A stretch of 49,512 bases of DNA. Source: a virus. Under the pieces are notes generated by a model. That model ran no database searches, had not been told where the DNA came from, and worked only from the letters and a program-made list of their open reading frames with translations. The DNA is taken from UHGV virus genome UHGV-1368206. The stretch is one strand, 5' to 3'. A program made the position numbers and the translations under genes. Each line of letters opens with the position of its first letter. Within the stretch, counting starts at the first letter, position 1. Shown here piece after piece: positions 363-49,482 of the stretch.

Positions 363-1034
363 ATGTGCGGACGCTTTTCCCAGTCAATGACCCGTGAAGA
401 TTATCTTTCCTGTCTTGCCGATGAAGCCGATCGAGACATCGCATATGACCCGGAGCCGATTGGTCGATACAACGTCGCGCCCGGTACCAAAGTTTTGCTT
501 CTGAGCGAACGTGACGAACAACTACATATCGATCCTGTCTTCTGGGGTTATGCGCCAGGATGGTGGGATAAACCGCCTCTGATTAACGCACGCGTTGAAA
601 CTGCGGCCACCAGCAGGATGTTTAAGCCGCTATGGCAACATGGCCGGGCGATCTGCTTTGCTGATGGTTGGTTCGAATGGAAGAAAGAAGGCGACAAGAA
701 GCAGCCCTACTTTATCCATCGTGCCGATGGCCAGCCGATATTCATGGCCGCAATCGGAAGCACACCATTTGAACGTGGAGACGAAGCAGAAGGCTTTCTG
801 ATTGTCACCGCAGCAGCAGATAAAGGTCTGGTAGATATTCACGACCGCCGGCCGCTGGTACTTTCACCAGAAGCTGCCAGGGAATGGATGCGACAGGATA
901 TAGGAGGGAAAGAAGCCGAAGAAATATCTGCGGACGGTACGGTGCCCGCAGACAAGTTTATCTGGCACGCAGTAACGCGCGCCGTAGGAAACGTTAAGAA
1001 TCAGGGCGCAGAATTAATCGAGCCAATCACCTGA
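363..1034 (+). CDS. yedK: SRAP/YedK-family abasic-site processing protein
   Basis: N-terminal MCGRF (Cys2 nucleophile) and the overall SRAP-domain pattern (…FWGYAPGWW…PLINARVET…). A plausible ribosome-binding site (RBS) ggagg lies upstream of the ATG at 363. Confidence 0.75.
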   Translation: MCGRFSQSMTREDYLSCLADEADRDIAYDPEPIGRYNVAPGTKVLLLSERDEQLHIDPVFWGYAPGWWDKPPLINARVETAATSRMFKPLWQHGRAICFADGWFEWKKEGDKKQPYFIHRADGQPIFMAAIGSTPFERGDEAEGFLIVTAAADKGLVDIHDRRPLVLSPEAAREWMRQDIGGKEAEEISADGTVPADKFIWHAVTRAVGNVKNQGAELIEPIT

Positions 1035-2295
1035 CAACCGGTAAATCAGAGAAGCGGGTTGTATAGCGAGGAGAAAGCATTTCTCTCTTCATCTGCCAGG
1101 TGGCCTGGATCCCCTGCCCAGCAAAATAGAGTGTTCCCCTCCCGTCCTTTGCGTTGAGGTGGTCGAGAACTTCCATCAGTTTCTCGCTGTTCTGCCGTGG
1201 CGCATTGTCATCAAACAGGTTCAGCTGAGCAACACCCTGGCTATAAAAATCACCGAGCATGATCCCCGCTTTCTGATACCGGTGCCCATCGACCCATATC
1301 GCATCCAGACACTTTACCGCGGCATTGATGATATCCCGGCTATCCTGCGTGGGCGTCAGCAATTTAATGGATCCGCTGTTACCGTAGTATTTTTCGTTCA
1401 GCGCAAACGGCGACGTCTTCACGAACGCCGATATGTGTCGGCAGTATTGATGCTCCCCACGAAGTTTCTCTGCGCCTCTGGCCGCGTATGAACAGATAGC
1501 CTGGCGCATTTGCTCATAGGTGGTAATGCGCTCCCCGAACGACCGGCTGCAGACAATTTCCTGTTTCACTGGAGCAAACTCTTCCAGCTCAAGACACGGC
1601 TCGCCGCGAAGCTCCCGCACGGTTCTCTCAAGCACCACGTTGAAGTGTTTACGGATAAAGCGGATATCCGTATCAGCTAACTGCAGGACTGTTTTTATCC
1701 CCATAGCCTCAAGCTTTTTGCTGATACGGCGGCCAACACCCCACACCTCATCCACCGGAAGTAAAGCCATTAGTTTGCGCTGCCGTTCCACATTCGAAAG
1801 GTCGACAACCCCGCCAGTAGCTTTCCATGTTTTCGCCGCATGATTGGCGAGTTTTGCCAGCGTCTTTGTTTGTGCGATGCCCACCCCAACCGGAAGCCTG
1901 GTATTACGGTAAACGGTATCTTTCAGCTCATGCCCGAACTCTTCCAGCACACGGCAATTACGTACACCAGTGAGATCGCAAAAGGCCTCGTCGATGCTGT
2001 AGATTTCAACTCTGGGACACATTTCCTCAAGGGTCGTCATCACGCGGTTGCTCATATCCGCGTAGAGTTCATAGTTCGAACTGAAGCAAACCACTCCATG
2101 CCGGCGGAACTGGTCTTTGCATTTGAAGTACGGATCCCCCATCTTGATGCCAAGCTTCTTGGCTTCGGCGGAACGCGCTATCACACAACCATCGTTATTG
2201 GACAATACGACAACCGGCTTCCCTCGCAGATCTGGCCTGAAAATGGTTTCGCAGCTTGCATAGAAGCTGTTCACATCAACCAAAGCAAACATCAC
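1027..2295 (-). CDS. umuC: Y-family translesion DNA polymerase UmuC (Pol V catalytic subunit)
   Basis: 422 aa with a typical UmuC N-terminus (MFALVDVNSFYASCE…VVVLSNNDGCVIARSAEAK…). Its start overlaps the stop of the upstream ORF (ATGA coupling). Confidence 0.9.
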   Translation of the reverse strand: MMFALVDVNSFYASCETIFRPDLRGKPVVVLSNNDGCVIARSAEAKKLGIKMGDPYFKCKDQFRRHGVVCFSSNYELYADMSNRVMTTLEEMCPRVEIYSIDEAFCDLTGVRNCRVLEEFGHELKDTVYRNTRLPVGVGIAQTKTLAKLANHAAKTWKATGGVVDLSNVERQRKLMALLPVDEVWGVGRRISKKLEAMGIKTVLQLADTDIRFIRKHFNVVLERTVRELRGEPCLELEEFAPVKQEIVCSRSFGERITTYEQMRQAICSYAARGAEKLRGEHQYCRHISAFVKTSPFALNEKYYGNSGSIKLLTPTQDSRDIINAAVKCLDAIWVDGHRYQKAGIMLGDFYSQGVAQLNLFDDNAPRQNSEKLMEVLDHLNAKDGRGTLYFAGQGIQATWQMKREMLSPRYTTRFSDLPVVR

Positions 2296-5612: not shown

Positions 5613-8096
5613 TTACGGATAAATAGCGTCTGAATATTCGGACAGGGTCAGCGTCTGGGTGTAATCGCCATTTGGTTTGGCAGTTTCTACACGCCAGATA
5701 CTGGAGTTAAGCTCAGTATCGGTTGCAATGAAGTAACGACTGGCAACCTGGCAGTCGGCACCATTGTAGATATTCAGATCAAAGGCATCTGCAGCAGACT
5801 GGAATGCTTTTGCATTTCCCGCCACAGGGTAGGCGCGCCAGCGTCCACGGAAGTTACCCAGACTATCCGTCATCACCACCCACATATCGCCAAACGAAAA
5901 ATCAATGCGTTCTGACGTCGTGAAGATATCGCCATTGCGGCCGGTGAGATAACCGTTCTGCTGCCTGTTGTCGTACATGTCCGGACACTGAACAACGGCG
6001 CCACGCACCACCTGTTCAGTTTCCAGTACTTTGACCGTCATGCTCATTCGTGAATAGAGAATTCTGCGCGCTTCAAGCCATGCCCGGTCAACCGCCTGAC
6101 TACGATTACGGCAACCATCCAGGCTAATCTGACTGGCGTTAACCGTTGCGTCTTCGACTTCCCGAATGCCACTGGCGTCGATCTGCAGATAAACATAGGA
6201 CTTCTTATTGGTGAGCGGGTCAACATAATCGACTGTGACACCGTCATATCCTCCCGGCAGCGACATCTGCCATGAAACCTTATATTCATCAAAGAACATG
6301 TTTGAGCGCGCAAACACCGCATCAGGATAGCTGACCTTTTCATCGCGCCAGAACGTCAGCACATCACCGATGTTGTTTCCATCGACACGGGCTGCATTGC
6401 ATATTGTGCCGAGCCTTTCACTCAGAGAAAGCTTCTCATCTGAAAAGGTGTAATCGAAATAACTGAGTTCTGGAACCGTTATTGAGTCAGCAATCGCGTA
6501 CAACGTAGCGACATCAATGCTTGAAACATCCTGCTTACCAATAACCACCCACTCATGCAGGGCGGCGTCAGCAAATGAGCGGCTTGGTCGCAGCGTGTAG
6601 TCAATCTGGCCGGTCGTCCGGTCATAGCTGATGGTATGGCGCTGAGCCAGCATGTTGTATTTCTGCTCGCGATTGCTGTTGCTATTGTTGCTCCCCTTGA
6701 TGGTCACTCTGGCGATCGTATCATCAGGATAAACAACATTGACGCGGGTGTTTACCGCGTGAATCGCCATCAGCGTGACGACGTTGCTGTCGTTGCTGTT
6801 ATCCAGCCTCTCAATTGTGACCGCATAGCGACCTACCCCGGCGGCCGGAGTGAATTTGTGCGTGGTTCGGAAGTTACGTGTCGAGACCTGATAATCGTTA
6901 TCGAAGAAGTAATCATACTGCTCTGCCGTTCCGGGGATCTGGTTGTTGTTATCGTCAACCTTCCAGAACCGGATCCGATAGCGCGTCGTACCCGCCGTTG
7001 CGCCTAACTGAACCATCGCATGAACCCAGATTTGAGAAGACTCAAGGGGAGAGACCGACGGACCAATGACCAGCGGAGTCTGATCGTTCAGGGTAAAGAG
7101 TGTCAGATTGATTGTCGCATTCGCGGGTAAAGTGGTGATTTCTCCGGTCATGTCACCAAGATAAAACGTGGTGTATGACTGCGTGTCCTCGCCAATAAAG
7201 CTCTCTGAATAGACAATATTCCCGCTACCGGTGACATTCCTGGTAACAGGGCTCCCACCTGAGTTCCAGGTTGCATTAATCACGAAGGTAACCGGATGAG
7301 GCACAGCCAGCGCAGCAAAATATGAGAAATTGTCGTCATTGGACAGCACCGTCGCTTTAAGCTGGTTGCTCTCAATGCTTATTGCGGTCGGCGTGGATGT
7401 GGTCGCCGTCTGTGCCGGAAAATCCTCACTCTCATTCAGCCCAGGCACTTCTTCGTTATCGATATCATCGAACTGATACCCAACGTCAATGGTGCCTATC
7501 GTCGCGCCCGGGTCGAAAATCTGGTAACTGGCGCCGGCCAGACTCCCCAGATTCGATTCTGAATACCTGACAGAGGAAATGGTGTATTTCCCTATCCCCA
7601 CTTCAAACCATTCAGTGATGTATTTGTTGTTGTCGATGAACTCGAACAGCGCCTGCTGCGTCAGATCCGGAAACACCCTGCACTGCCCGTAAATGTTCGG
7701 TCGCCCTTTGTACAGTCTGGCGCGGTTAGTTTGTCCGGTGGCATCGTTATTTGGTGATTCGCCAGTCGAAATTGACGGAGCAGAGGCATTTTGCTGCCCG
7801 GTGATCCCCGACAGCACCTTTTTGGTAAAGCGGATCGGGTTGAGGTGCTCTACAGGGTTGAGCAACGTCTTCAACAGGCCGCCGCTCTCTGGCTGGTCAA
7901 AAACCGCTACCACGTCTCCGGCGCGCAGCTTAAACGACAAATCAAAATCATCGTTCAGCTCACGACCATTCAGGCGCACCTTCACATTATTGTGCAGCCT
8001 GAGCGAGTCCAGTAATGCTATCAACTCAGTACCGGGTGCCGTCGCTCCATGCTGTTTCGGCGCGCCAGGCAGGCGCTGCAGCTCATATCGAACCAT
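5613..8096 (-). CDS. central tail fibre / host-specificity protein (lambda J-like)
   Basis: About 827 aa from the ATG at 8096 (MVRYELQRLPG…), placed directly after an NlpC/P60 tail protein as in lambda K-I-J. The ORF track's extension to 8201 is probably spurious. Confidence 0.65.
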   Translation of the reverse strand: MVRYELQRLPGAPKQHGATAPGTELIALLDSLRLHNNVKVRLNGRELNDDFDLSFKLRAGDVVAVFDQPESGGLLKTLLNPVEHLNPIRFTKKVLSGITGQQNASAPSISTGESPNNDATGQTNRARLYKGRPNIYGQCRVFPDLTQQALFEFIDNNKYITEWFEVGIGKYTISSVRYSESNLGSLAGASYQIFDPGATIGTIDVGYQFDDIDNEEVPGLNESEDFPAQTATTSTPTAISIESNQLKATVLSNDDNFSYFAALAVPHPVTFVINATWNSGGSPVTRNVTGSGNIVYSESFIGEDTQSYTTFYLGDMTGEITTLPANATINLTLFTLNDQTPLVIGPSVSPLESSQIWVHAMVQLGATAGTTRYRIRFWKVDDNNNQIPGTAEQYDYFFDNDYQVSTRNFRTTHKFTPAAGVGRYAVTIERLDNSNDSNVVTLMAIHAVNTRVNVVYPDDTIARVTIKGSNNSNSNREQKYNMLAQRHTISYDRTTGQIDYTLRPSRSFADAALHEWVVIGKQDVSSIDVATLYAIADSITVPELSYFDYTFSDEKLSLSERLGTICNAARVDGNNIGDVLTFWRDEKVSYPDAVFARSNMFFDEYKVSWQMSLPGGYDGVTVDYVDPLTNKKSYVYLQIDASGIREVEDATVNASQISLDGCRNRSQAVDRAWLEARRILYSRMSMTVKVLETEQVVRGAVVQCPDMYDNRQQNGYLTGRNGDIFTTSERIDFSFGDMWVVMTDSLGNFRGRWRAYPVAGNAKAFQSAADAFDLNIYNGADCQVASRYFIATDTELNSSIWRVETAKPNGDYTQTLTLSEYSDAIYP

Positions 8097-13953: not shown

Positions 13954-14574
13954 TCACTGCAATATCCCCTGTCTCAGGTGTGGTAATACCCTGCTCCAGT
14001 TATCATCCCTCCATGGGTGAAATTCGATATGCGCTGTCTCGCGTTTAATAATTTCCCTTGCCTTGTTGATCGAGCGAGGCAGTTCCTGTCCTATTGAGTG
14101 AAAGTGACCTGCTTCACGATGCTCAGCCACTCTCAATAACGGCGTAACACTCTCACAAGCTTTAAGCATTGTGTCGCTGGCTCTCCATAGCCACGCCAGG
14201 GAACAAAGTTCATCGTCTGTGAACTGCTTGGCGATCGGCGAGCGCTCCACTTCGCGATCCAGGATATCCAATACCCAGCGGCGGAACTCTTTTGCTTTTG
14301 GCGTGCGAGCAAACATCGCAACCAGGTGAGCACCGCGCAGCGAGAAAACGCGTGATTCCTGCTTTCCTGAAGGGGTGGTCAGTTTGACCACCCCTGTCAT
14401 TTGCGCTGTAAATTCATCAGCATGCCGAGAGTAGATGCGTTGCACAGCTTTATCATCTGCATACTCCAGCGCCTGGCCAACCTCTGACGCCGTAAGCCAG
14501 ATATGACCACCCATTTCCATGTATGAAAAATTGGTATTGTGGAAAGTTAACTCGTTGTTCTGTACACTGTTCAT
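13954..14574 (-). CDS. BRO-N domain antirepressor (Ant-like)
   Basis: Bro-N signature (…ELTFHNTNFSYMEMGGHIWLTASEVGQALEY…) from the ATG at 14574. The RBS AAGGAAA lies 8 nt upstream. Confidence 0.7.
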   Translation of the reverse strand: MNSVQNNELTFHNTNFSYMEMGGHIWLTASEVGQALEYADDKAVQRIYSRHADEFTAQMTGVVKLTTPSGKQESRVFSLRGAHLVAMFARTPKAKEFRRWVLDILDREVERSPIAKQFTDDELCSLAWLWRASDTMLKACESVTPLLRVAEHREAGHFHSIGQELPRSINKAREIIKRETAHIEFHPWRDDNWSRVLPHLRQGILQ

Positions 14575-14647
14575 GTCGATATTTCCTTCGCGGGATTTGT
14601 TCGATAAGGAGCCCTGACTATCGCAAGTAGTTAGGGCTTCGTCGTTT

Positions 14648-14827
14648 TTATGCTTGAGCAATTTTCTCTCCAGTCAGGCCATACGCCTTTCTCAGCTGGT
14701 AGATCAGTTCAGTATTGAACTGCCGACACTGTTCTTCACCGTTGCGCTCTATCGCTTTGCGCACATCTTCAGGGAAGCGGACTTTACGCTGATACATGTC
14801 TTTTGCTTTTTCCATAACCTTCTCCAT
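14648..14827 (-). CDS. Arc-like ribbon-helix-helix repressor
   Basis: RKVRFPEDVRKAIERNGEEQCRQFNTELIYQL aligns with P22 Arc (LRWPREVLDLVRKVAEENGRSVNSEIYQRV). The start could instead be 14815 or 14899. Confidence 0.55.
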   Translation of the reverse strand: MEKVMEKAKDMYQRKVRFPEDVRKAIERNGEEQCRQFNTELIYQLRKAYGLTGEKIAQA

Positions 14828-14919
14828 AAATGCCCCACCGTGAGACACCCAATAAGTGTCACACCGTGCGTCATTGCTGTCAACCCCACCGTGGGGCATA
14901 ATTTCTATATTGTGATTTT

Positions 14920-15378
14920 ATGGAAGCGACAAAACATATGAGCAGAGAAGATCCTCAATTACGAATCAGATTACCTATTGAATTAAAAGAAAGAATTGAA
15001 GATGCAGCCAAGTCAAATAATCGCTCAATGAATGCCGAGATAGTCAAGCGCCTTGACACCAGCTTCCTTAGTGAAATAAAGGATGATGAAGTCATATCAG
15101 CTCATGAGGCTATGAAAATGGCGGAGAACGCAAAAGAAGAAATCTCCGGCATTATATTTAAGAGAACATTTGAAGAAATTAATAAAAAAGCCCGTATGGG
15201 GCACAAAGAATTCTGCATTGAACTCAATGATTTAGAACTAGAATATCTCACATTAGCTGACTTTAATGCATCCCTTGATAAGACACTTACGCGCCTAAAT
15301 GAACTCGGTTATGTAGTTCCAGAAAAATCAGTTGATGGAGGGGGATTTCTGGTAAGAATACCTGACAATAAAAATTAA
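14920..15378 (+). CDS. Mnt-like repressor (Arc-family RHH N-terminal domain plus C-terminal extension)
   Basis: MSREDPQLRIRLPIELKERIEDAAKSNNRSMNAEIVKRL matches the Arc/Mnt RHH consensus (DP-x-F-x-R-P-x-E-x-K…NGRSMNSE). It is divergent from the arc-like/ant operon, as in P22 immI. The start may be 14938. Confidence 0.7.
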   Translation: MEATKHMSREDPQLRIRLPIELKERIEDAAKSNNRSMNAEIVKRLDTSFLSEIKDDEVISAHEAMKMAENAKEEISGIIFKRTFEEINKKARMGHKEFCIELNDLELEYLTLADFNASLDKTLTRLNELGYVVPEKSVDGGGFLVRIPDNKN

Positions 15379-15390
15379 TGATGTTAAAGA

Positions 15391-15430
15391 GCGACGACAG
15401 GACCATTAAACCCCCTGTCGTCGCCGATTT
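15391..15430. terminator. 11-bp inverted repeat hairpin (gcgacgacagg/cctgtcgtcgc) between convergent genes
   Basis: A perfect 11-bp stem with a 12-nt loop, followed by cgatttata. Confidence 0.4.
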
Positions 15431-15497
15431 ATAGGTCACTAACTGAAGAAATTACCCCTCAGGTAATCTGAATAGATATGAGCAGTTCGTTTGATTG

Positions 15498-16193
15498 TTA
15501 TTTGACCTCTCTTTTCGCTCTCATTCGTCTGCGTCGAGCAAAGTAGTCATCAGCTGCGTGATCGTACTCTTCGCGCGTATACCCTTTCTGCTCAGGGTAT
15601 TTAGCGATGAGCATTAGCTGAAACTCGGTCATAGTGAGTTGCCATGCTTCCTCCTTGCTTATGCCGAAGTGATTGCGCGCTGCGACGATATACTCAGATG
15701 CTCTGAATTCATTGGTTGTATCGCTAGTCTCATGGCGCTGGAGTTTTCTCACCTTTGCCTTGCCAATGATTCCATGCATCATTAGATTTTGAGCAACGAT
15801 GATCATTTCCGTCGCCGGCATCGAGCCAGGACGCCACATAAATCCGCGCTTGCGTGATTTACCCGGCTTCATCCATCCGACCAGTTCCCCGATATCGTCA
15901 TCGCAACAAGCAGTAAGAACGGCATGAGCAGCCATAACTGCTTTACGGTTAAGAAGTCCGCTCTGGATATATCGCAGAACGCAATCTGGCAGGCGGCTGT
16001 ACTCATCGTGGATATAAACCTGAGCCGCCTGTTTAATTAACGGTGTCGCCTCATCGTTACATAGGTCATAAAACGTCTGAACAATCTCTGCCGGCTCTCC
16101 GATTCTCGTCATGGCCAGCAGTGACGGGCGAAAGAAATATTCCTTATCCCCGGACGTAATCAGGCACTCGCCAAACTCTTTAACAGGCGTCAT
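15498..16193 (-). CDS. putative tail assembly chaperone (positional; lambda G/GT-equivalent)
   Basis: 231 aa, immediately downstream of the major tail protein gene. No motif was recognised. Confidence 0.35.
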   Translation of the reverse strand: MTPVKEFGECLITSGDKEYFFRPSLLAMTRIGEPAEIVQTFYDLCNDEATPLIKQAAQVYIHDEYSRLPDCVLRYIQSGLLNRKAVMAAHAVLTACCDDDIGELVGWMKPGKSRKRGFMWRPGSMPATEMIIVAQNLMMHGIIGKAKVRKLQRHETSDTTNEFRASEYIVAARNHFGISKEEAWQLTMTEFQLMLIAKYPEQKGYTREEYDHAADDYFARRRRMRAKREVK

Positions 16194-23581: not shown

Positions 23582-25013
23582 CGGTAGTTACCTTTTTGTT
23601 TGGGTCAGGAGTTTGCACTTCTTCACGCGGCTCTAACTCTCCCGCTTCCCTGACCTCATTCTCATCGACAGCTGGTGTTCCGTAGGCTTGCTGTGTATCC
23701 CTGGCGACCGCCGCCATTTCCTTCATGTTGGCAATCTTTTCTTTCTCACTTGGTGCTAGTAAGTCAGACCAGGTTAAAGTTATTTCGCCAGACTTCGGAG
23801 GCTCAATGACTTCTACTGTCCACAGCCGCTCAATTACCGCGGTCGCGCGATCAGTCTGGAAACCCGCACGACGACCGTTGCAGCGCTTAGCAAAGTCGTT
23901 TTTGTCCTGATCTGACGCAAGCCTCCCTGTCTGCTGACCAAAGAGAATGGTGAATGGCATCTGGACTGAAGAGGAAAACTGATTTGCTGACACTGTCCAT
24001 GTAGGACTTGGATCCGCTGCCGCCACCGACAACACTTTGGCTTCACCATCTTGAGTCACCAGCGCTGAATCTGTACCAGAGTTCAGCTTCTGTATGGCGG
24101 CATTTAGTGCTTCCGCCAGGCCTGAGTAACCGGCTTTCTTTGCTTCATCAATGATGGTCTTGAGGTTTGTTTCCTTCGACATGTTGATGCCGAGCTGTCT
24201 GCTGGCGTTCTTCAGGAAGCCTTCCGCACTACCGCCGGAAGTTTTCGCCATATCAAGCAGGTCGTTGTAACCAGCTCGCAGAAACGGAATGCCGGCCAAC
24301 GATGACTCGTCTTCTGAGCCTTCGCAAAAGATGATGATTCTTTCGGGGTGGATCTTAATCGACCGCATCGGACCGGAAATGTTGCCATTGTCTCCGACTT
24401 GTTGCTCCTGGAAGTAATAGAACTTCGGCATGCCGTAGTCTGAGGATTTCTGGTCCTGTTCAAGTTCCCCGGGCTTGACCTGTGCCTCCCATGCAGGAAT
24501 CATTTTTACCAGGCCACGCTCGCGAGAATTCCGCATCACGCTACGATCGACTGGCTCCCACCACTCCTTACTGTCTGCAAACTGAAGAATAAGGGCGGAG
24601 TAATGACCTACCAGATTTCGCCGGTCTGCATCCTTCACCTTAGCCCAGTGTTTCTTCATGAGTTTGGTGACTTTTTTCTCCCAAGGCGTCGATTTTTTCG
24701 ATTTTTTGGTCTCATCACCGTCTACGATCACCGGCGTGTCAGTCCAGCATGCATCGAGCAGTTTATGCACCGCGCCAAAGGCAGCGCCATTACGCTCATA
24801 CATGTTGTAGAAGTGGTCAAAATCGAGACGCTCCGGGTAACCAAATTCGCACCATAGATGATGTCGTTTCGTGTTCCCTGACTTCCCTAGCCCTGAAGCA
24901 TATAACTGGCGCGCACGACCCACCTCGTTAAGGCTATTCACTATGAGCCCAGCGAGGGTTTGCATTTCGGTATCGTTACTCACTGAGATTTCCTTAGGTG
25001 AAGAAAATTGCAC
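23517..25013 (-). CDS. portal protein
   Basis: 498 aa, immediately downstream of the large terminase gene, with an acidic C-terminus. Confidence 0.75.
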   Translation of the reverse strand: MQFSSPKEISVSNDTEMQTLAGLIVNSLNEVGRARQLYASGLGKSGNTKRHHLWCEFGYPERLDFDHFYNMYERNGAAFGAVHKLLDACWTDTPVIVDGDETKKSKKSTPWEKKVTKLMKKHWAKVKDADRRNLVGHYSALILQFADSKEWWEPVDRSVMRNSRERGLVKMIPAWEAQVKPGELEQDQKSSDYGMPKFYYFQEQQVGDNGNISGPMRSIKIHPERIIIFCEGSEDESSLAGIPFLRAGYNDLLDMAKTSGGSAEGFLKNASRQLGINMSKETNLKTIIDEAKKAGYSGLAEALNAAIQKLNSGTDSALVTQDGEAKVLSVAAADPSPTWTVSANQFSSSVQMPFTILFGQQTGRLASDQDKNDFAKRCNGRRAGFQTDRATAVIERLWTVEVIEPPKSGEITLTWSDLLAPSEKEKIANMKEMAAVARDTQQAYGTPAVDENEVREAGELEPREEVQTPDPNKKVTTDDPLSDESGAKGESRYASSAA

Positions 25014-26469
25014 CGACTTGTTTGTGGTTGTTTTTCGCTACTGCGAAGTAGCGGAACCCGTCGGCTCCGTGTGATGTGAAGTCGTGAAGGGGTTTATCTT
25101 TCCAGCATCCTCGCTTGTCATCCCACTCCTTTCGATACCCCTCAAGGTGAGATATGCCCTCAGCGCATTTCTCTTCATCGAAAACACAGGATGGGAGGAT
25201 TTCACGCACCGACTCAATGCCGGTATCTACACCGACTTTTGGCACCATCTGGAATGTCATGCTGTAAACCTGACCGTCGATCTCATACCCTTCCTGGGCG
25301 AGTTCCCTCCGAGATTTTGCGTCTGCACCAAATTCACGATTATCGATGTCGTGCGGCCCCCAGTGCTCGCCGTACTCATAGCCGCGGTCTTTCAGCACCT
25401 TCATGTAGTGCCGAAGCCCCTCGCCAGAGTTTTCGTAGTAGTCGATGATGTGAAACTCCTCACCAACCTCGCGAACAAACCAGATCGCCGTGGAGTCGCC
25501 CACACCAATATCCCAGAACGTGTGTACCGGGAGGTGCGAGTTATCAGGGATTTGGCCGATCCGTTTATTGGTATAGAGCCAGCGGAATTGTTTGGCGTAG
25601 TAAGCACCCTCGACCGACTGTTGGAACGCCTCCGCCGGTATGGTCGGGTATTCGCGCTTCATGTCGTCGCCGAGTGTTTTCTCTTTGGCGTAATACCAGG
25701 CCTTTTGGCGCTCGTTGACGACTACTCCGTGCTTTGCCTCCATCTCGGCGAAGTATTCAACTAAGCGCTGAGGTAGCGGCTCTACCGGGTCAATTGCGTA
25801 CTGCGGATTTTTCCACCACGAGAAGAAGAAAAACTTCCAGTCGAGCGCTGATAGTGGCTTGCCCTGCAGCATGGCTTTCTCTGCCGTCTGGCAGTAATCA
25901 AAGAAGTAACCCGCCCGGCCTTCCGCCGTGCTCTCGATAGTAGCAAAGCAACCTGTCGATACCGCCTCAAACGCACCAGTGACGATTTCACGGGCTTTGT
26001 CAGGATACTTGGCGCATATCTTCCCGAACTCGGAAACATGCAGATAGCGCAGCGTACCGCCACGAAACGACGTGCTGACGTATAGCGAGCCGCCCTTCTT
26101 AAAGACGAGCTCACCGGAAGAGTCGTTGCTGGCCGGGTTGGCTGCCTTTATCTCAGCCGGCAGTTTGTCGTATGCATACTTCACCTTTTCCCGAAACAGG
26201 CGCTTTGCGTCAGTCAGCGTATGGGCAATCAGCGCGCACTTCGCCGACTCGAACAGGGCCGCGTCCAACTGGATGATGCATACCTCAGTTGTGAAACCGA
26301 GTTGACGAGCTTTCAGGATGATATTGCGGGTATGGATCCCCTCGAAGTATTCGCGCTGCTCAGGCGTCATCCTGAACCGCGTCGGCTTACCCTCTTTGTC
26401 GGTGATCCAGTAAAGATTGTTCAGCCGCCAGTCTTTGTTGGACAGCAGCTTGAGGTGCTCAGGTTTCAT
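24994..26469 (-). CDS. terminase large subunit
   Basis: 491 aa with a Walker-A-like LGFTTE motif and a C-terminal nuclease region (…WDIGVGDSTAIWF…DFTSHGADGFRY…). Confidence 0.85.
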   Translation of the reverse strand: MKPEHLKLLSNKDWRLNNLYWITDKEGKPTRFRMTPEQREYFEGIHTRNIILKARQLGFTTEVCIIQLDAALFESAKCALIAHTLTDAKRLFREKVKYAYDKLPAEIKAANPASNDSSGELVFKKGGSLYVSTSFRGGTLRYLHVSEFGKICAKYPDKAREIVTGAFEAVSTGCFATIESTAEGRAGYFFDYCQTAEKAMLQGKPLSALDWKFFFFSWWKNPQYAIDPVEPLPQRLVEYFAEMEAKHGVVVNERQKAWYYAKEKTLGDDMKREYPTIPAEAFQQSVEGAYYAKQFRWLYTNKRIGQIPDNSHLPVHTFWDIGVGDSTAIWFVREVGEEFHIIDYYENSGEGLRHYMKVLKDRGYEYGEHWGPHDIDNREFGADAKSRRELAQEGYEIDGQVYSMTFQMVPKVGVDTGIESVREILPSCVFDEEKCAEGISHLEGYRKEWDDKRGCWKDKPLHDFTSHGADGFRYFAVAKNNHKQVGAIFFT

Positions 26470-27071
26470 TACGCCCCCTGAGACAATGAATCCATCAGGT
26501 CAGAGAGTTGCTTAACAGAGTTGTCGCCTTCCGGGCCGTCGATATCGTAGGCCTGGCGTTCGAGGCCGACGAGGTTCTTCAATGCTTCACTGAGAGCCTT
26601 CACCGACTTAACACGCTCCGGCATGCTGATTACCTTGTGGTAAATCTCATTGAGTTTGTCCTGGCCCTTGTCGTCAGGGTTGAGCATCAACTCTCCGAGT
26701 TTCTCCAGCGCTGCTACATCCGCGCACTCGGCGCCCAACTCATCAAACAGGGCATTGGTTATCTGCCTGGCGCGTTTTATGTCACCGCGATGCTCCATGC
26801 GTACCGTAGCAATGACCTCAGCTGTAGCCTCTATAAGTACGCGCTCTGACAAAGTCGTTTCAGTGCGTACCTGTTTGCGTACCTCTGCTTTGCGTACCAG
26901 ATCGTCAGCGCGTTCTTTCACCTTCGCATTCAGGTCGCGAGACCAGTCATCACGCTTGGCGCGCTTACGGATAGCCCCTTCGCTAATGCCATGTTGAGAT
27001 GCAATCTCTCGGAGAGACATCACCCCGGCCCGGTACGCCGTCTCGATGGCCTCCCAGTCCGGTTTGCTCAT
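26469..27071 (-). CDS. terminase small subunit
   Basis: 200 aa with an N-terminal HTH (MSLREIASQHGISEGAIRKRAKRDDW). Coupled to the large-subunit gene. Confidence 0.7.
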   Translation of the reverse strand: MSKPDWEAIETAYRAGVMSLREIASQHGISEGAIRKRAKRDDWSRDLNAKVKERADDLVRKAEVRKQVRTETTLSERVLIEATAEVIATVRMEHRGDIKRARQITNALFDELGAECADVAALEKLGELMLNPDDKGQDKLNEIYHKVISMPERVKSVKALSEALKNLVGLERQAYDIDGPEGDNSVKQLSDLMDSLSQGA

Positions 27072-27320: not shown

Positions 27321-27557
27321 TTACTCAGTCGCGGTATCAAACAGCGCCAGCGCTTCGGTCGCTTCCTGAATCGCCTTACGGGTTTTCGATACAATCTCAC
27401 TTTCCGTGTAAACACGATCGAAAGAGTCTGCGAACAGCTCAGCTTTGAGATTGCTATCGCCAACCCAGTCAATGGCCAGCTTCGCCGCGGCGGTGTCGTA
27501 ATTAACTTTCTTGATGATAGTCAGGCGGATTTGTTCTGCAGGTGTAATTTCTGACAT
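27321..27557 (-). CDS. small hypothetical phage protein
   Basis: 78 aa with protein-like composition, followed by a terminator. Confidence 0.4.
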   Translation of the reverse strand: MSEITPAEQIRLTIIKKVNYDTAAAKLAIDWVGDSNLKAELFADSFDRVYTESEIVSKTRKAIQEATEALALFDTATE

Positions 27558-27620: not shown

Positions 27621-27821
27621 TTACTGCCGTGGGGTGTGATGGTAACGGGAAATGGTCTTGCCGTTTGCGTTCATCACATGGGCTACCTCTCCCGGCTTCA
27701 GGAACACGTTCTGATCCATTCCCGATACCGCGATGCTCTGCTGGTCAGGGTTGAAGCCAACGCTCAGTCCACAATGGATTTCTTCGCCACCACCTGGCGA
27801 CATCACTTTTACTGTTAACAT
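27621..27821 (-). CDS. small hypothetical phage protein
   Basis: 66-aa ORF. Confidence 0.3.
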   Translation of the reverse strand: MLTVKVMSPGGGEEIHCGLSVGFNPDQQSIAVSGMDQNVFLKPGEVAHVMNANGKTISRYHHTPRQ

Positions 27822-27888
27822 GCTTTTCCTTCTGCTTCTGTTAATTAAAAGCTCCTGCTATTGCGAATTCTCACAAGGTAATGATTAA

Positions 27889-28047
27889 TCACTCAGCGCC
27901 ATTATTCTGCTTTGTAAAACCAAACATTAATGCCACCAAGAGAAATGAATAGTGCGTATACCCTGGATAATGGAATTGCAATACCGAACCAATGCAAAGC
28001 ATGGAAAATGATAATGCGAATTTTCTTCCAGACCACGCCAGTCTCAT
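27889..28047 (-). CDS. 52-aa hydrophobic peptide (putative small membrane protein), partner of the 290-aa moron
   Basis: ORF found by hand, below the track cutoff: MRLAWSGRKFALSFSMLCIGSVLQFHYPGYTHYSFLLVALMFGFTKQNNGAE. The RBS AGAGGT lies 8 nt upstream, and the gene begins 19 nt after the stop of 28066..28938. AT-rich. Confidence 0.35.
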   Translation of the reverse strand: MRLAWSGRKFALSFSMLCIGSVLQFHYPGYTHYSFLLVALMFGFTKQNNGAE

Positions 28048-28065
28048 TGTATTACCTCTGATCAA

Positions 28066-28938
28066 TTATTTGTCTATGACACCCTCAACCTTTGCTTTTG
28101 CAAGGTAGGCAAGGTTTTTATTTCCATCCTTCATTACACTTTGCATTTTCGGAGTAACTTTGATGAATCCTCCGAGAACAGAGGCCACCGCTCCAACGCT
28201 TAACATCGCTAAGGGATGCTCACTATTCATGGCAGCCACACCTGCTGTTGCAGCGGCCATCACCTGACTCAGGTCGAACTCAAAGGAGGAGGAAATATTA
28301 AATTTAATTGGACTTCTCCAACCTTGTGAATTTAATGCATCCAAATCAGCTATAGATCTTTTGAATCCGTCAAATGCTTTCGCTTTAGATAACTCAAAAT
28401 CTCCAGAATTAATAACTTCAAAATAAAGCTCGTCTATATACGAATGAAGTGCTATTAATTCATCCGTTCTCCTTTCCTTGAACTCCAGAATCTCATTAAG
28501 GCTGACATCAGGGCCTGGCACAGGAAGAAGGTTGCATAAATCAAATCTCAAGGTTTGCTTTACAACGGTATCACTGTCAGAAAAATTAAGCTCATCATTG
28601 AGAGAATGTATTCGCCAGTCAGTATCTTTATGCTTCGTCCTCATCAAGTCCAGGGTTCTGGTCTGAGATAAGGCATCAAATTCAGCATACATTGAACTTG
28701 CCATACTCCTGACCGAGAATTTAGGAACCTCAAGCTTACCAAGGCGCATTAACTCCTCTTCGCAAGGCAACCAATGATGAATCATATTATTTGTGGGGGA
28801 GACCAGTCTGTCCCAGTATAATAAAAAATAATTTATATCTAATCTGTTTATTGACTTACCAGTTCGAAATCCATGGCCACCAGCAACCTTAATCAATTCA
28901 TTTCTAGTAAAAACCACACCTCTTTCCATAAATCCCAC
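28066..28938 (-). CDS. 290-aa protein of unknown function with a C-terminal hydrophobic segment (AT-rich moron)
   Basis: GC content is visibly lower than in flanking genes. A hydrophobic stretch AAATAGVAAMNSEHPLAMLSVGAVASVLGGFI lies near the C-terminus. No motif recognised. Confidence 0.55.
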   Translation of the reverse strand: MGFMERGVVFTRNELIKVAGGHGFRTGKSINRLDINYFLLYWDRLVSPTNNMIHHWLPCEEELMRLGKLEVPKFSVRSMASSMYAEFDALSQTRTLDLMRTKHKDTDWRIHSLNDELNFSDSDTVVKQTLRFDLCNLLPVPGPDVSLNEILEFKERRTDELIALHSYIDELYFEVINSGDFELSKAKAFDGFKRSIADLDALNSQGWRSPIKFNISSSFEFDLSQVMAAATAGVAAMNSEHPLAMLSVGAVASVLGGFIKVTPKMQSVMKDGNKNLAYLAKAKVEGVIDK

Positions 28939-29020
28939 TCCTGAATGATAACAGGTTATAATGTTAGCATTATCTAAGGTAATGAGTTGTGATTAATTTC
29001 TGCAATTTGGTTCGTAACTT

Positions 29021-29248
29021 CTAAGCTTTTCTGCTGGTTTCTTTCTGACAGTTCGCCAGCACCGATTTGTTGTGCGCCAGTATGTCGCGCTTGGTATGCT
29101 TATCCAGCACATCGATATCGTGCTCAGTCAGGTAGATAATTCGTACCCAGTTGCAGGCCGTATCAACCACCATCGGGGCGGGTAAACTTTTCGCGCAGCT
29201 CCCGATCAACATCGTCATCAGGCATATGGCTAACAGTCTGCTGTACAT
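29021..29248 (-). CDS. o-spanin (Rz1/LysC-like outer-membrane lipoprotein)
   Basis: From the internal ATG at 29248: MYSRLLAICLMTMLIGSC has a lipobox (LIGS|C). The gene starts inside the i-spanin gene in another frame (overlapped spanin architecture). Confidence 0.5.
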   Translation of the reverse strand: MYSRLLAICLMTMLIGSCAKSLPAPMVVDTACNWVRIIYLTEHDIDVLDKHTKRDILAHNKSVLANCQKETSRKA

Positions 29249-29438
29249 TGCTGGCCTCTCTGGTGGCTTCCTCTTTCCGTTCAGCTGCAGCGACGCTTGC
29301 AGCGGCTTTCTCTTCAGTGCGCGTTTGTGCTGATTTGGCTTCTGCCTTACTGGTACCGCGAGCATGGCCAATACCGAATGCGCCAGCGATAGCACCCAGG
29401 ATGAGGACCACCAGCCCAGCAATAATTTCAAAACTCAT
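29163..29438 (-). CDS. i-spanin (Rz/LysB-like)
   Basis: An N-terminal TM helix (IIAGLVVLILGAIAGAFGI) followed by a charged coiled-coil region, in the lysis cassette. Confidence 0.55.
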   Translation of the reverse strand: MSFEIIAGLVVLILGAIAGAFGIGHARGTSKAEAKSAQTRTEEKAAASVAAAERKEEATREASNVQQTVSHMPDDDVDRELREKFTRPDGG

Positions 29439-29782: not shown

Positions 29783-30321
29783 AGGTTTACTCTCTCCTTC
29801 ACCCACCCGAATAGAAATTCTTCATTGGCTTCCCGCGCTTCCGCCAGTTCGAGATACCGTGCGCCCTGACTGCAGTTCAACCCTTTCAGTATCACCGTGA
29901 CCCCTGCGCTACCCCGTACGGCGAGGTAACTGCGCAGCGCGGCGATCGTGATGTTCCCAATGACGCCATCCGGTTTGAGGTCGGGATACAGCTTGCCGCG
30001 TTGGTTCAGTGCCGTCAGCCAACGCTGCAGGAACGTTGTGGAAACACGCGGCCCCATGTTGACGCCGGTATCGCATAACTCTTCTGCGATTGATGGTGAC
30101 AGTTCGGCGATCTTGTCAAATTTGGGTTCCAGCCAATACTGCTGAATATAGATTTCTTTCGCAGTTTCCCGAGGGAGCTCTTTCATATCGCCTTTGTAAC
30201 CGTATGCACGCGCTGTGTTCTGCGTGATACCCCAGCGAGTAGGACCACCTTTATCATTCGGGTTATTTACGTAACCCCCTTCTTTACCGAGAATGCCCTC
30301 GATAATCTGGTCTGCTGTCAT
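29779..30321 (-). CDS. endolysin, GH108 N-acetylmuramidase with PG-binding domain
   Basis: From the ATG at 30321: MTADQIIEGILGKEGGYVNNPNDKGGPTRWGIT… is the GH108 signature. The start is ATGA-coupled to the holin stop. Confidence 0.8.
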   Translation of the reverse strand: MTADQIIEGILGKEGGYVNNPNDKGGPTRWGITQNTARAYGYKGDMKELPRETAKEIYIQQYWLEPKFDKIAELSPSIAEELCDTGVNMGPRVSTTFLQRWLTALNQRGKLYPDLKPDGVIGNITIAALRSYLAVRGSAGVTVILKGLNCSQGARYLELAEAREANEEFLFGWVKERVNL

Positions 30322-30629
30322 TGTGCTTTCACTCCGGTAATGCGCTCCCAGAAATACGTGAGGGCTACAGAACCCATTGCGCCACTGATACCGGCCGTCG
30401 CGAGAATCATATAAATGCTCAGACCGCCTTCTATGCTGACCAATCCACCGATGACCCCGGTGAACCCTGAAACCACGATCTGCGCGAGAGCATTTATCCA
30501 GCTCCACTTCGCCTTGCCCTGCTTTACATCCATCAGGAAACGGACCAGGCCGCCCCAGCCAGCAATGATCAGCAGAGCCAGCCAGGTTATTCCGGCAATG
30601 CTCTCTTTATCTTGCATACGTTTTGCCAT
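30318..30629 (-). CDS. holin
   Basis: 103 aa with at least two TM helices, the first gene of the lysis cassette. Confidence 0.65.
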   Translation of the reverse strand: MAKRMQDKESIAGITWLALLIIAGWGGLVRFLMDVKQGKAKWSWINALAQIVVSGFTGVIGGLVSIEGGLSIYMILATAGISGAMGSVALTYFWERITGVKAQ

Positions 30630-30926: not shown

Positions 30927-31136
30927 ATGACCGCTATCAAAGCTACTTACATAAGCAAAGACCAGAACCTGACCGATGGCACCACCGTTTACTGGTTTGA
31001 TGTAAACGGAGAAACCTACGGGGTTGTGCATGGCGGCGAAAGCTATAACGCCAAGGTTGTTGATTGTGACGGGACTCCATCAGACCAATACACAATTGAC
31101 CAGTTCAACATTTCCGAAGAGATGATCGCAGAATAA
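30927..31136 (+). CDS. small acidic protein of unknown function (first gene of the reverse-oriented cassette)
   Basis: 69 aa with the RBS aagga. Its stop overlaps the next ATG (TAATG). Confidence 0.45.
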   Translation: MTAIKATYISKDQNLTDGTTVYWFDVNGETYGVVHGGESYNAKVVDCDGTPSDQYTIDQFNISEEMIAE

Positions 31137-31327
31137 TGCCCCTAACAGACTACATAGGCACATACTTTGGCGGCAATAAATCAGCCTTTGCCCGCCATAT
31201 GGATGTCATACCTCAGCAGGTGACTAAGTGGGTTAACGACGGCTGGATTGTTGTCAACCATACGCTATATAGCCCACGAAGAACCGTCCCTGAGAATATA
31301 TCCGGCGGTGGCTCTGCTGGAGATTAA
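31136..31327 (+). CDS. YdaS/Cro-like HTH DNA-binding protein
   Basis: GGNKSAFARHMDVIPQQVTKWVN matches the YdaS-antitoxin/Cro-like HTH pattern (GG-x-x-ALA-x-x-LGVS-Q-VSQW). 63 aa. Confidence 0.55.
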   Translation: MPLTDYIGTYFGGNKSAFARHMDVIPQQVTKWVNDGWIVVNHTLYSPRRTVPENISGGGSAGD

Positions 31328-31515: not shown

Positions 31516-32199
31516 TTAGTTGACTTTTGCAAGGCATTGCTGCGAAAAAGTCGCTTTTTGTTGTGAACGTGATCGAGAAACAGATAGTAACGACTGGTTA
31601 TCAAGTTCCTGGTAGATGTCCATCATAGCCTGCCAGTAATCTGAGTAATTGTGGCACCAGTTATCTGGCTTGATTCCCACCATAGAGGCCGGGGAATAGA
31701 GGTCTCCCCTGCCGGTTACTTCAGCCTTTTTATTTTGAGCTGCCAGCCAGATAAGCTGACGAAGGCGCTCGACCGTTTTCTTTGCAATGCGCACGCCGGA
31801 CAACTTCTCCCTGAATTTCTCCCACGCCCAGCGGGTGATCGTCTCCTGGTGCTCCCAGCGGATATTGTCGCTGTAATTCCAGAGTAGCCAGGCTTTCTGA
31901 TGCTCTTCCAGCGACAGGAGCGCCCGGCGCCAGCTTGCCGTCGAATACTCAACTGGCTGCACCAGGGCTATGGCTAAGCCTTTTGCACGTGACTGGCTGC
32001 CGGCCATCGGTGGGCTGTCAGGGTTTACCATTCGCTTCTTCTGTGGGTCGTAAACTTTCTTGCGCCCGCGGCTTCGCGGAGTAGCCTCAAACATCGCGTT
32101 TTCCGCAAAGGCTACCAGTTGCCCTTTCGTTGCCCCGCTCAGATCGGCGGTGGCCACTATTAGCTGCTGGCGAACATACTCAAGGTACTGGGTATTCAT
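31516..32199 (-). CDS. late-gene antiterminator Q-like protein (Phage_antitermQ family, QuuD-like)
   Basis: 227 aa, immediately downstream of rusA and a ylcG-like ORF, as in the DLP12 nin-Q region. Lies upstream of the lysis cassette. Confidence 0.55.
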   Translation of the reverse strand: MNTQYLEYVRQQLIVATADLSGATKGQLVAFAENAMFEATPRSRGRKKVYDPQKKRMVNPDSPPMAGSQSRAKGLAIALVQPVEYSTASWRRALLSLEEHQKAWLLWNYSDNIRWEHQETITRWAWEKFREKLSGVRIAKKTVERLRQLIWLAAQNKKAEVTGRGDLYSPASMVGIKPDNWCHNYSDYWQAMMDIYQELDNQSLLSVSRSRSQQKATFSQQCLAKVN

Positions 32200-47921: not shown

Positions 47922-48170
47922 ATGAGCGAAGTTATTCAGCTGACTCCTAATAAATGGGTTTCGGAAGAAGTGCTGATGACGATCACCGGACTCACCAAAA
48001 ACGCTATCAAATCGGCCCGCGAAAAATCATGGATGGAAGGTCGCGAGTATCGGCATTATTCCGGAGACTGCCAGCCTAAGGACAACTCCCCTATCCTCTA
48101 CAATCGCTTAGAGATAGACAACTGGGTTGAACGTCAGCGCCCGGCGATCCCGCGCCAGAAATCTGTTTAA
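47922..48170 (+). CDS. xis: excisionase (DUF1233-type Xis)
   Basis: MSEVIQLTPNKWVSEEVLMTITGL…SWMEGREY… matches the enterobacterial prophage Xis family. Immediately upstream of int. Confidence 0.65.
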   Translation: MSEVIQLTPNKWVSEEVLMTITGLTKNAIKSAREKSWMEGREYRHYSGDCQPKDNSPILYNRLEIDNWVERQRPAIPRQKSV

Positions 48171-48201
48171 ATACCCCAGTTATTCACAACAAGGAGAACA
48201 C

Positions 48202-49482
48202 ATGAAATATCCTACCGGGGTAGAAAATCACGGGGGTAGTTTGCGCCTGTGGTTTATATATAAGGGTGTAAGGGTTCGGGAAAATCTCGGTATACCTGAC
48301 ACCCCAAAAAACAGGAGAATGGCAGGAGAACTGAGAACGACCATTTGCTATGCCATCAAGATCGGCACTTTCAATTATGTCGAGCAGTTTCCGCAGTCTT
48401 CAAACCTTGGGCGATTTGGCCTGACGCGCCCAGGGATTACTGTTGGCGAACTCGCCAAAAGATGGTTAGAGCTTAAGAGGATGGAAATTACGCTTAACGC
48501 CTTCAACCGTTACCGGTCTTACATCAAAATTTGCTGCGAATTACTGGGCCCAGACAAAATGCTTACCAGCATTAACACGGAACAGATTCTGTTAGTGAGA
48601 AAGGAGTTACTTACAGGGTTCCAGATTTGCGGGATACACCAGAAGAATCGCTCCGCCAAAAAAGGCAGAACAGTGAGAACAGTAAATGTTTACCTTAACT
48701 GCCTTGGAGGTATGTTTACTTTCGCTAAACAAAATGGGTATATCGACAGAAACCCATTCGAAGGCATTGATCCTCTCAGGAAGAGTAGATCGGAACCAGA
48801 TCCACTTACCCACGATGAATATTTCCGACTTCTTAACGCTTGCCCATCAGAGCAAATAAAGAATCTGTGGATACTGGCCGTTAACACTGGACTTCGCCAC
48901 GGAGAAATCAGTGCGCTGGCCTGGGAAGATATAGACCTGAAAAAATGGATAATCACTGTAAGCCGCAACATTGCCATTAAAGGGCATTTCACCCCGCCTA
49001 AAACAGAATGCGGTAACCGGGAAATAGTGCTCACCGACGCAGCAATACAGGCTCTGAAAAGCCAGATGGCTTATACCCGAATGGGCAAACAGCATCAAAT
49101 AGAAGTGCATTTGAGAGAGTTCGGCAGAACAAGAACAGATGCATGTACTTTCGTATTTGTTCCGCGGCTGACTGCAAGAAATGGAAAAGGTGGAGACTGG
49201 TATGCACCTGGTTCATTCGGCGCGACGTGGAATGATGTGCTCAAGAGAGCCGGCATTCGCCATCGCCGTGCATATGAATCAAGACACACTTTCGCATGTT
49301 GGGCATTAAGTGCAGGAGCAAATCCAAACTTCATTGCCTCACAGATGGGCCACACGTCAGCGCAAATGGTTTACAACGTTTACGGAAAATGGATGACTGA
49401 CAACAACAGTAATCAGATGGCGATACTCAACGCAAATTTTGGAGGTTTTGCCCCATCCATGCCCCAGGCACTAAATCAGTAA
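48202..49482 (+). CDS. int: tyrosine integrase
   Basis: From the ATG at 48202, with the RBS aaggag upstream. The catalytic region carries R…HxxR…Y (…RHTFACWALSAGANPNFIASQMGHTSAQMVYNVY) and an N-terminal arm-binding domain. Confidence 0.85.
   Translation: MKYPTGVENHGGSLRLWFIYKGVRVRENLGIPDTPKNRRMAGELRTTICYAIKIGTFNYVEQFPQSSNLGRFGLTRPGITVGELAKRWLELKRMEITLNAFNRYRSYIKICCELLGPDKMLTSINTEQILLVRKELLTGFQICGIHQKNRSAKKGRTVRTVNVYLNCLGGMFTFAKQNGYIDRNPFEGIDPLRKSRSEPDPLTHDEYFRLLNACPSEQIKNLWILAVNTGLRHGEISALAWEDIDLKKWIITVSRNIAIKGHFTPPKTECGNREIVLTDAAIQALKSQMAYTRMGKQHQIEVHLREFGRTRTDACTFVFVPRLTARNGKGGDWYAPGSFGATWNDVLKRAGIRHRRAYESRHTFACWALSAGANPNFIASQMGHTSAQMVYNVYGKWMTDNNSNQMAILNANFGGFAPSMPQALNQ

Follow-up and report, generated by a model that had tools for sequence, protein, structure and literature searches.

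A mobile gene pair, encoding a DUF6236 protein and a small hydrophobic peptide, between the lysis and terminase genes of a lambdoid prophage: a candidate phage-exclusion module

The viral genome UHGV-1368206 is a lambdoid prophage of 49,512 nucleotides (nt) with most of its genes on the minus strand; we refer to this whole stretch as "the window". Between its spanin genes and its terminase region lies an AT-rich insert, positions 27838-29041, that carries two open reading frames (ORFs), both on the minus strand. The first (28066-28929) encodes a 287-amino-acid protein of the DUF6236 family, and the second (27889-28047) encodes a hydrophobic, predicted membrane peptide of 52 amino acids, MRLAWSGRKFALSFSMLCIGSVLQFHYPGYTHYSFLLVALMFGFTKQNNGAE. 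We define these two genes as the "cassette". There is very little doubt that the cassette is a real, mobile two-gene moron, and phage exclusion is a plausible function for it.

The boundaries of the insert were mapped by blastn against prophages that lack it (L001, L002) and against prophages that carry it beside other neighbours (L005-L009). Relative to E. coli p10A and Klebsiella phage ST13-OXA48phi12.2, both without the insert, homology ends at about 29042/29031 and restarts at 27850; relative to K. pneumoniae prophages that share the insert but have other downstream genes, homology ends at 27837. The left breakpoint (~29031-29042) falls just within, or past, the stop codon of the o-spanin gene, and the right breakpoint (~27837-27850) falls about 16-30 nt upstream of the next conserved gene. 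The GC content of the insert is 0.392, compared to 0.53 in its flanks and a window mean of 0.511 (standard deviation 0.035 for segments of the same size), which makes it the lowest-GC 1.2-kb segment among 967 windows of that size. Prophages that are homologous in other respects lack the cassette, the breakpoints are clean and the base composition is extreme, so the insert is a genuine inserted module rather than a compositional fluctuation. It shows two features of a moron: extra DNA between genes that are adjacent in the relatives L001 and L002, and deviant base composition. The initial annotation had described an AT-rich, separately acquired two-gene moron in the slot between lysis genes and terminase, and that description holds, as does the location it gave; the insert is, however, larger than the two ORFs to which it had been confined. 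A likeness between the two ends of the insert, ATTAATCA...TTACCTT, was noticed by eye as a possible flanking direct repeat, but was not recovered by a repeat finder, is not conserved and was discarded. Rfam contains no RNA family that matches the region.

The start of the larger gene was assigned from its homologues. Since the 123 homologues found by a word-indexed search all begin MxRGV (M-E/K-R-G-V-V), the true start is the ATG at 28929. The GTG at 28938, from which a 290-amino-acid product had previously been read, overlaps a Shine-Dalgarno sequence, AGGAG (28938-28942, minus strand, read from the sequence), that lies 8 nt upstream of this ATG. One homologue, from metagenomes, is 100% identical to the window protein, and others from Enterobacter hormaechei and K. 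pneumoniae are 86-89% identical. Those that have been named are labelled only "DUF6236 family protein" or "hypothetical protein".

Although no motif had been recognised in this protein before, it matches Pfam DUF6236 (PF19749) with 117.7 bits against a gathering cut-off of 26.2 (E = 8e-34; residues 35-281, profile positions 75-321 of 324) and PHROG 23128 over its full length (E = 7.1e-72; residues 4-287, profile positions 1-288 of 288). All 56 homologues that were aligned match PF19749 as well. The window protein is a bona fide full-length member of both families; both are catalogued without a function, and the pairing with a peptide is absent from any annotation. NCBIfam gave no match for the window proteins or for the 56 family members. 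The locus adds a clearly delimited new member to a family that is in the catalogues but whose function is dark, together with a peptide partner that had escaped annotation. The earlier suggestion of an undescribed system remains a hypothesis: nothing characterised matches either protein, but the large protein is no orphan, being a member of a widespread and catalogued family.

The extent of that family was estimated by a profile search of 1.84 billion cluster representatives, which yielded 2,056 clusters (50% identity) at E<=1e-3. Nearly all of the best 150 of these are single-domain proteins of 275-310 amino acids, and none of the 150 displays an informative domain fusion, save for short N-terminal extensions and one SEC-C motif. 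The latter is a zinc motif at the N-terminus of P0147. Distant members from Pseudomonas and related bacteria (e.g. P0112, P0114, L095, L097, L098 and L100) have at their N-terminus an additional stretch of about 20 residues, conserved and basic, MGEAKYRK..DPxYGK. Invariant residues of DUF6236 proteins are R3, G4, Y38-W39-D40, W105, P136, P138, F150-K151 and E157-L158. At least 32 of 5,426 complete E. coli genomes have a family member detectable at the DNA level, and a query with the E. coli-type cassette found no match among the complete E. coli genomes. When the module was searched at near identity against collections of phage and E. coli DNA, only the flanking 66-amino-acid gene matched.

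An AlphaFold2 (AF2) model of the DUF6236 protein, built with 56 sequences, has a predicted local distance difference test score (pLDDT) of 78 and a predicted template-modelling score (pTM) of 0.80. It consists of a confident N-terminal alpha/beta region (residues 1-140), a three-helix segment (144-200) and strands at 208-216, 256-266 and 274-277. No solved structure matched the predicted fold, and a family-profile sequence search of the PDB returned noise only (14-3-3, Tet4). Between the strands at 208-216 and 256-266 the protein carries a hydrophobic two-part segment, residues 220-258 (28156-28272, minus strand), which reads VMAAATAGVAAM - NSEHP - LAMLSVGAVASVLGGFIKV and was delimited by hydropathy, composition and a low pLDDT at 226-253. 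The maximum of 19-residue hydropathy falls at about residues 235-255 in 56 of 56 aligned members; its median is 1.57, and the window protein reaches 1.90. The segment is rich in small residues (G+A+S+T 41%, versus 22% elsewhere) and poor in charged ones (12% versus 26%). A C-terminal hydrophobic, Gly/Ala-rich stretch had been pointed out in the initial annotation; it is real, and its position is conserved throughout the aligned family. A glycine zipper was considered for it and rejected: the pattern [GAS]xxx[GAS]xxx[GAS] occurs in 82% of the segments, but also in 73% of composition-matched shuffles. A Pfam scan of the 56 members gave only faint and inconsistent membrane-type matches on this segment (SLATT_fungal, E = 0.11; DUF3482; MafB). 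Taken together, the model and the composition suggest a cytoplasmic alpha/beta-plus-helical protein that docks to the inner membrane through a hairpin rich in small residues.

The small ORF begins with an ATG at 28047, 18 nt after the TAA stop codon of the DUF6236 gene (a 19-nt gap had been reported), and is preceded by a Shine-Dalgarno sequence, GAGG (28055-28058, minus strand, read from the sequence), 7 nt before the ATG and 8 nt after the TAA. The N-terminus of its product is basic, and two short hydrophobic helices, predicted by AF2 at residues 3-26 and 28-50, are joined at the conserved proline of an aromatic-Pro turn. Gene callers usually miss this gene, and in most genomes it is uncalled. 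Homologous ORFs of 47-53 codons lie on the same strand, 7-18 nt past the DUF6236 stop (the true ATG is sometimes nearer), in prophages of four lineages (K. pneumoniae, E. coli, K. quasipneumoniae and Providencia) and on 11 IMG/VR contigs. An alignment of five peptides, from the window clade and the E. coli/K. quasipneumoniae clade, has 12 invariant residues: W5, K9, I19-G20, Q24-F25, P28, V38-A39-L40 and F42-G43. The more distant Providencia peptide keeps this pattern. The proportions of non-synonymous and synonymous differences (pN/pS) are 0.04/0.18 between the window and K. pneumoniae and 0.20/0.68 between E. coli and K. quasipneumoniae, a ratio of about 0.2-0.3. With position and sequence conserved and pN well below pS, the substitution pattern indicates that the peptide is under purifying selection and is a real gene, as had been supposed when the ORF was found by hand. 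It has no match in Pfam, PHROG, PADLOC or NCBIfam. The hydrophobic segment found family-wide in the DUF6236 protein and the two hydrophobic helices of the peptide would place both products at the membrane.

Two other ideas about the small ORF were dismissed. In the window clade the two ORFs share a reading frame, separated by the TAA and six codons, and read-through of the stop codon might fuse them; the shared frame is confined to the window clade, and other clades differ. A weak tblastn likeness to a 62-amino-acid hydrophobic ORF of E. coli p10A was judged to be compositional. In a peptide-less locus, L087, a different ORF downstream of the DUF6236 gene (from ~2400 onward) starts with a transmembrane-like helix (MSYFYQLLIVLISGSFAAWLTT...) and may encode a non-homologous membrane partner.

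The peptide is an accessory rather than an obligatory partner, because it is present at only 11 of the 49 viral (IMG/VR) loci; the other 38 carry DUF6236 alone. It is also missing, without remnants, from the entire 288-amino-acid clade of Enterobacter, Citrobacter and E. coli and from all non-Enterobacterales homologues examined. On a neighbour-joining tree, the loci that bear it fall in three clades spanning both main Enterobacterales branches, and the peptides have diverged in step with their DUF6236 partners. This tree is most simply read as one gain of the peptide at the base of the group, followed by at least three losses.

This distribution bears on whether the two genes form an addiction or toxin-antitoxin (TA) pair, in which the peptide would be a membrane toxin of Hok/TisB-like size restrained by the DUF6236 protein, or the reverse. 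The peptide resembles type I toxins in size and hydrophobicity, the two genes are tightly linked, and some islands and plasmids have DUF6236 genes in the midst of TA modules; a toxin-like two-component architecture had also been proposed initially. What speaks against it is that most viral loci, and every distant lineage examined, do without the peptide. The peptide itself was never seen without DUF6236 among four called homologue clusters, and Pfam gave no match to Hok/Gef or any other toxin family. Repeated loss of just one partner sits badly with an obligatory bond of toxin and antidote, whichever gene played which part, and we regard a TA pair as very improbable.

The mobility of the cassette is evident from its neighbourhoods. 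Identical or 86-89% identical gene pairs are found in different phage backbones. Lysis genes upstream and/or terminase genes downstream, in the same orientation, were found at 40 of the 49 IMG/VR loci. In Enterobacterales the DUF6236 gene points the same way as the late operon. It has at least five families of endolysin (GH108, lysozyme, GH19, M15 and GH104) before it and at least four types of terminase after it, and its position relative to DUF2560 and HNH genes is variable. The same pair also occurs after tailspike genes, beside umuDC and at a prophage end. In K. quasipneumoniae prophages (L032/L033, 6001-9101) the cassette lies between the tailspike gene and umuDC/SRAP genes; because the latter are like the SRAP and umuC genes that adjoin the tail fibres at the left end of the window (363-2295), this phage type hosts the cassette in both of its classical moron slots. 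The slot behind the lysis genes accumulates several cargos, since in E. hormaechei prophages (L010, 7060-9177; L011, 1954-4071) a 485-amino-acid gene with a weak GT2 glycosyltransferase match and an opposite-strand 172-amino-acid gene are inserted directly after DUF6236.

DUF6236 genes without the peptide have further locations, prophage ends among them. In Vibrio prophages such a gene comes last, in Klebsiella phage Mulock it is flanked by int and the tail fibre gene, and in Pseudomonas it follows P2-like tail genes; others were found in recombinase or TA islands and on plasmids of Acinetobacter and Vibrio. Other neighbours include TA modules, a DNA methylase and umuDC. A 2.2-kb cassette that is 99.5% identical between two Acinetobacter plasmids, A. 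lwoffii pALWED1.3 (L048, 3712-5929) and A. indicus pBDT2076-2 (L101, 1712-3928), consists of an Abi_2/HEPN (RiboL-PSP-like) gene and, 20 nt further on, a DUF6236 gene; the two small plasmids are otherwise unrelated. This Abi_2 gene is AbiD/AbiF-like, and the window has no HEPN or Abi gene of its own.

Some of the plasmid and island neighbours are not defence genes: a SulP transporter, tet(39) and a GT2-like gene. They are among the reasons to consider that the cassette is lysogenic-conversion cargo unrelated to phages, with DUF6236, with or without the peptide, altering envelope physiology, stress tolerance or host interaction. The logic would be that of lambda bor and lom, morons in or next to the same late region. 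Classical conversion-gene slots (after Rz/Rz1, and at the junction of tail fibre and att) are indeed occupied, and the hydrophobic elements are of a membrane type. Yet the DUF6236 protein has neither a signal peptide nor a lipobox nor outer-membrane features, it has no similarity to a known virulence or conversion factor, and the range of the family, from marine to soil to gut bacteria, fits a generic conflict between mobile genetic elements better than a niche trait. We consider conversion cargo unlikely.

Carriage by several classes of mobile element would also suit a counter-defence role, in which the cassette protects the phage, plasmid or island from host immunity, and a single domain without an enzymatic signature is what many inhibitor proteins look like. 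A copy in a Providencia rettgeri prophage (L037), in the lysis-terminase slot, has just upstream of it a gene (6409-6633) with a faint Pfam match to the Acb2/Tad1 hairpin; its product may be an anti-CBASS or anti-Thoeris sponge. Anti-defence proteins, however, tend to be small and soluble, so that 287 residues and a membrane-type hairpin are atypical; a position in the late operon is too late for most such needs; and the cassette link to an Abi_2/HEPN gene points the other way. Counter-defence is in our view improbable.

A generic -35/-10 scan of the region of the window found no promoter above chance, and there is no terminator on either side, so read-through from the late operon is expected. 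A putative extended -10 element, TGcTAACAT (28961-28969, minus strand), which was not called by that scan, emerges from comparison: the motif TGnTA(A/C)(A/C)(A/T)T lies 30-37 nt before the ATG (31 nt in the window) in seven of seven aligned upstream regions from three protein clades, in the midst of sequence that has diverged among the seven. Its variants are TGcTAAATT or TGcTACATT in the 288-amino-acid clade and TGaTAATTT in the 285-amino-acid clade. At the peptide-less locus L089, a clean rho-independent terminator (ccgcctcagggcggttttttatt) follows the DUF6236 stop (4858) by ~70-100 nt, indicating that DUF6236 is probably an autonomous transcription unit in that prophage. The conserved -10-like element and this terminator suggest autonomous transcription.

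These signals, along with the neighbourhoods, are also what we would set against a role as a late-lytic accessory of the phage itself, expressed from the late operon only and concerned with lysis timing, a block to superinfection, or avoiding the loss of progeny on debris. It is true that in Enterobacterales the cassette almost always follows the spanin genes immediately and in the same orientation, that the window has no terminator between it and the lysis or terminase genes, and that both products look membrane-associated, like lysis proteins. But the cassette is dispensable, being absent from close relatives, and a dedicated lysis role is contradicted by the many lysis systems that precede it and by copies outside phages: it is tied to no single lysis system, the pair is found behind tail fibres too, and copies without the peptide reside on plasmids and non-phage islands. 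The initial annotation had allowed for a lysis or structural identity; matches to lysis families were looked for in Pfam and PHROG, and neither protein had one to a holin, antiholin, spanin or other lysis accessory. With a conserved promoter-like element and one dedicated terminator pointing to autonomous transcription, a purely late-lytic role is distinctly unlikely.

Phage exclusion, to which we now return, has a precedent in this position. The initial annotation had called the slot a hotspot for immunity cargo, and phage phi80 bears this out, with an experimentally validated immunity pair, Tai/Ati, between Rz/Rz1 and cos (He et al. 2024, PMC11364771). The slot between Rz/Rz1 and the packaging genes or cos of lambdoid prophages is the sole feature that the cassette was found by test to share with Tai/Ati, beyond the general likeness of a large gene with a small neighbour and variable cargo. 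BLASTP of the window proteins against TaiEcA (orf63) and AtiEcA (orf64) gave no similarity (E = 2.3 and 13). In phi80, tai is divergent from ati, whereas both genes here are co-oriented and translationally linked, and Ati is a soluble antagonist whereas the peptide is hydrophobic. In its logic the cassette resembles RexA/RexB of lambda, a cytoplasmic protein of about 280 amino acids and a small membrane protein that are prophage-encoded and exclude phages by acting at the membrane, but neither homology nor fold similarity of the large protein to RexA was found, and the same holds for Tai and for the PADLOC models. Lambda bor/lom and the superinfection-exclusion moron gp15 of HK97 are likewise extra genes of deviant base composition between conserved late genes, patchy among relatives and with membrane-associated products. 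They differ in having unrelated sequences, and the cassette has no flanking terminator and a promoter that is only inferred.

The cassette is horizontally mobile prophage cargo, lodged between spanin and packaging genes, and we propose that it serves the lysogen and its prophage through membrane-associated phage exclusion, by superinfection exclusion or by abortive infection. The DUF6236 protein would be the functional core, cytoplasmic and docked to the inner membrane by its conserved hydrophobic hairpin. The peptide, a membrane partner added in some Enterobacterales lineages, would anchor or modulate it and would be dispensable. In the lysogen, transcription would start at the cassette's own weak extended -10 promoter; after induction, read-through of the late operon would take over. 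We infer the exclusion function from the slot shared with Tai/Ati, the -10-like motif, the terminator of L089, the Abi_2/HEPN cassette and the TA, methylase and umuDC neighbours, and the argument leans as well on the hydrophobic hairpins and on the movement between slots across phages, plasmids and TA islands. For the whole statement, a mobile moron together with its exclusion function, we estimate a probability of about 0.4.

Several observations weigh against the exclusion function. Inference from neighbours is weak: the neighbourhoods are heterogeneous, and the link between Abi_2/HEPN and DUF6236 is a single evolutionary instance that no other examined locus displays. In the window the cassette runs in the direction of the late operon and lacks a flanking terminator, which means that expression could be late-lytic only. 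The hydropathy of the protein's hydrophobic segment is borderline for a transmembrane helix in half of the family, and the segment could be a buried or oligomerisation element instead of a membrane hairpin. No recognisable effector or sensor domain was detected. Among databases no newer than 2023, PADLOC-DB v2 gave no match for either window protein at E<=1, and PADLOC gave no meaningful match for the 56 family members, with one spurious Cas12a at E = 0.008. The literature contained no paper that mentions DUF6236 or PF19749.

A broader extension of the proposal is tentative, and we think it more doubtful than the proposal itself. It holds that DUF6236 is the core of an unrecognised anti-phage family, borne by mobile elements, with an unsolved fold and acting at the inner membrane; enterobacterial prophages would have added a hairpin cofactor of 47-53 amino acids, and the Abi_2/HEPN plus DUF6236 cassette of Acinetobacter would be a second, effector-coupled variant. 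In lambdoid prophages, the junction of lysis and terminase genes is an emerging immunity hotspot with mostly unannotated cargo. The cassette is compact (1.2 kb) and easily cloned, and its large protein represents some 2,000 clusters, found on phages, on plasmids and in islands. If the anti-phage activity is true, a large "dark" family would be annotated and a new type of defence added. If exclusion is not true, the cassette is still a well-delimited case of modular moron exchange among prophages of clinically relevant Enterobacterales. In either case, the 47-53-amino-acid gene beside DUF6236 is one that gene callers systematically miss in prophages of Klebsiella, Escherichia and Providencia.

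The genes that surround the insert are those of a lambdoid prophage. The integrase gene lies at 48127-49482 and the Q antiterminator gene at 31516-32199. The lysis genes include a LydA-type holin gene (30318-30629), a GH108 endolysin gene and a DUF7940 holin-like gene, ahead of the spanins. The final genes of the lysis cassette (29021-29438) are those for the i-spanin (29163-29438, minus strand) and the o-spanin (~29021-29248, minus strand, lipobox LIGSC), which overlap each other, match Rz-like spanins in PHROG (E = 6e-31 and 2e-31 for the pair) and are not part of the DUF6236 cassette. The next gene downstream of the insert, also outside the cassette, is the conserved 66-amino-acid gene (27621-27821, minus strand; phrog_3909), which is found in relatives without the insert as well. 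It is followed by a DUF2560 gene (27321-27557, minus strand) and the gene for the small terminase subunit (26469-27071, minus strand), these three being assigned by PHROG/Pfam, and then by the genes for the large terminase subunit (24994-26469) and the portal. The structural region has 83-84% identity to Klebsiella and Enterobacter temperate phages.

Two further patches of low GC content were observed in the window. Two small, abutting plus-strand ORFs, 30927-31136 (69 amino acids) and 31136-31327 (63 amino acids), neither with a Pfam match, lie in a low-GC patch between the Q antiterminator and holin genes, which is the Stx slot of Stx phages. The second lowest-GC patch of the window, 14250-16100 (0.42-0.44), is within the block of tail genes. 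It contains a 152-amino-acid ORF (14920-15378, plus strand) with an N-terminal Arc/ribbon-helix-helix domain (Pfam E = 1.5e-12), and may be an immI-like or moron insertion.

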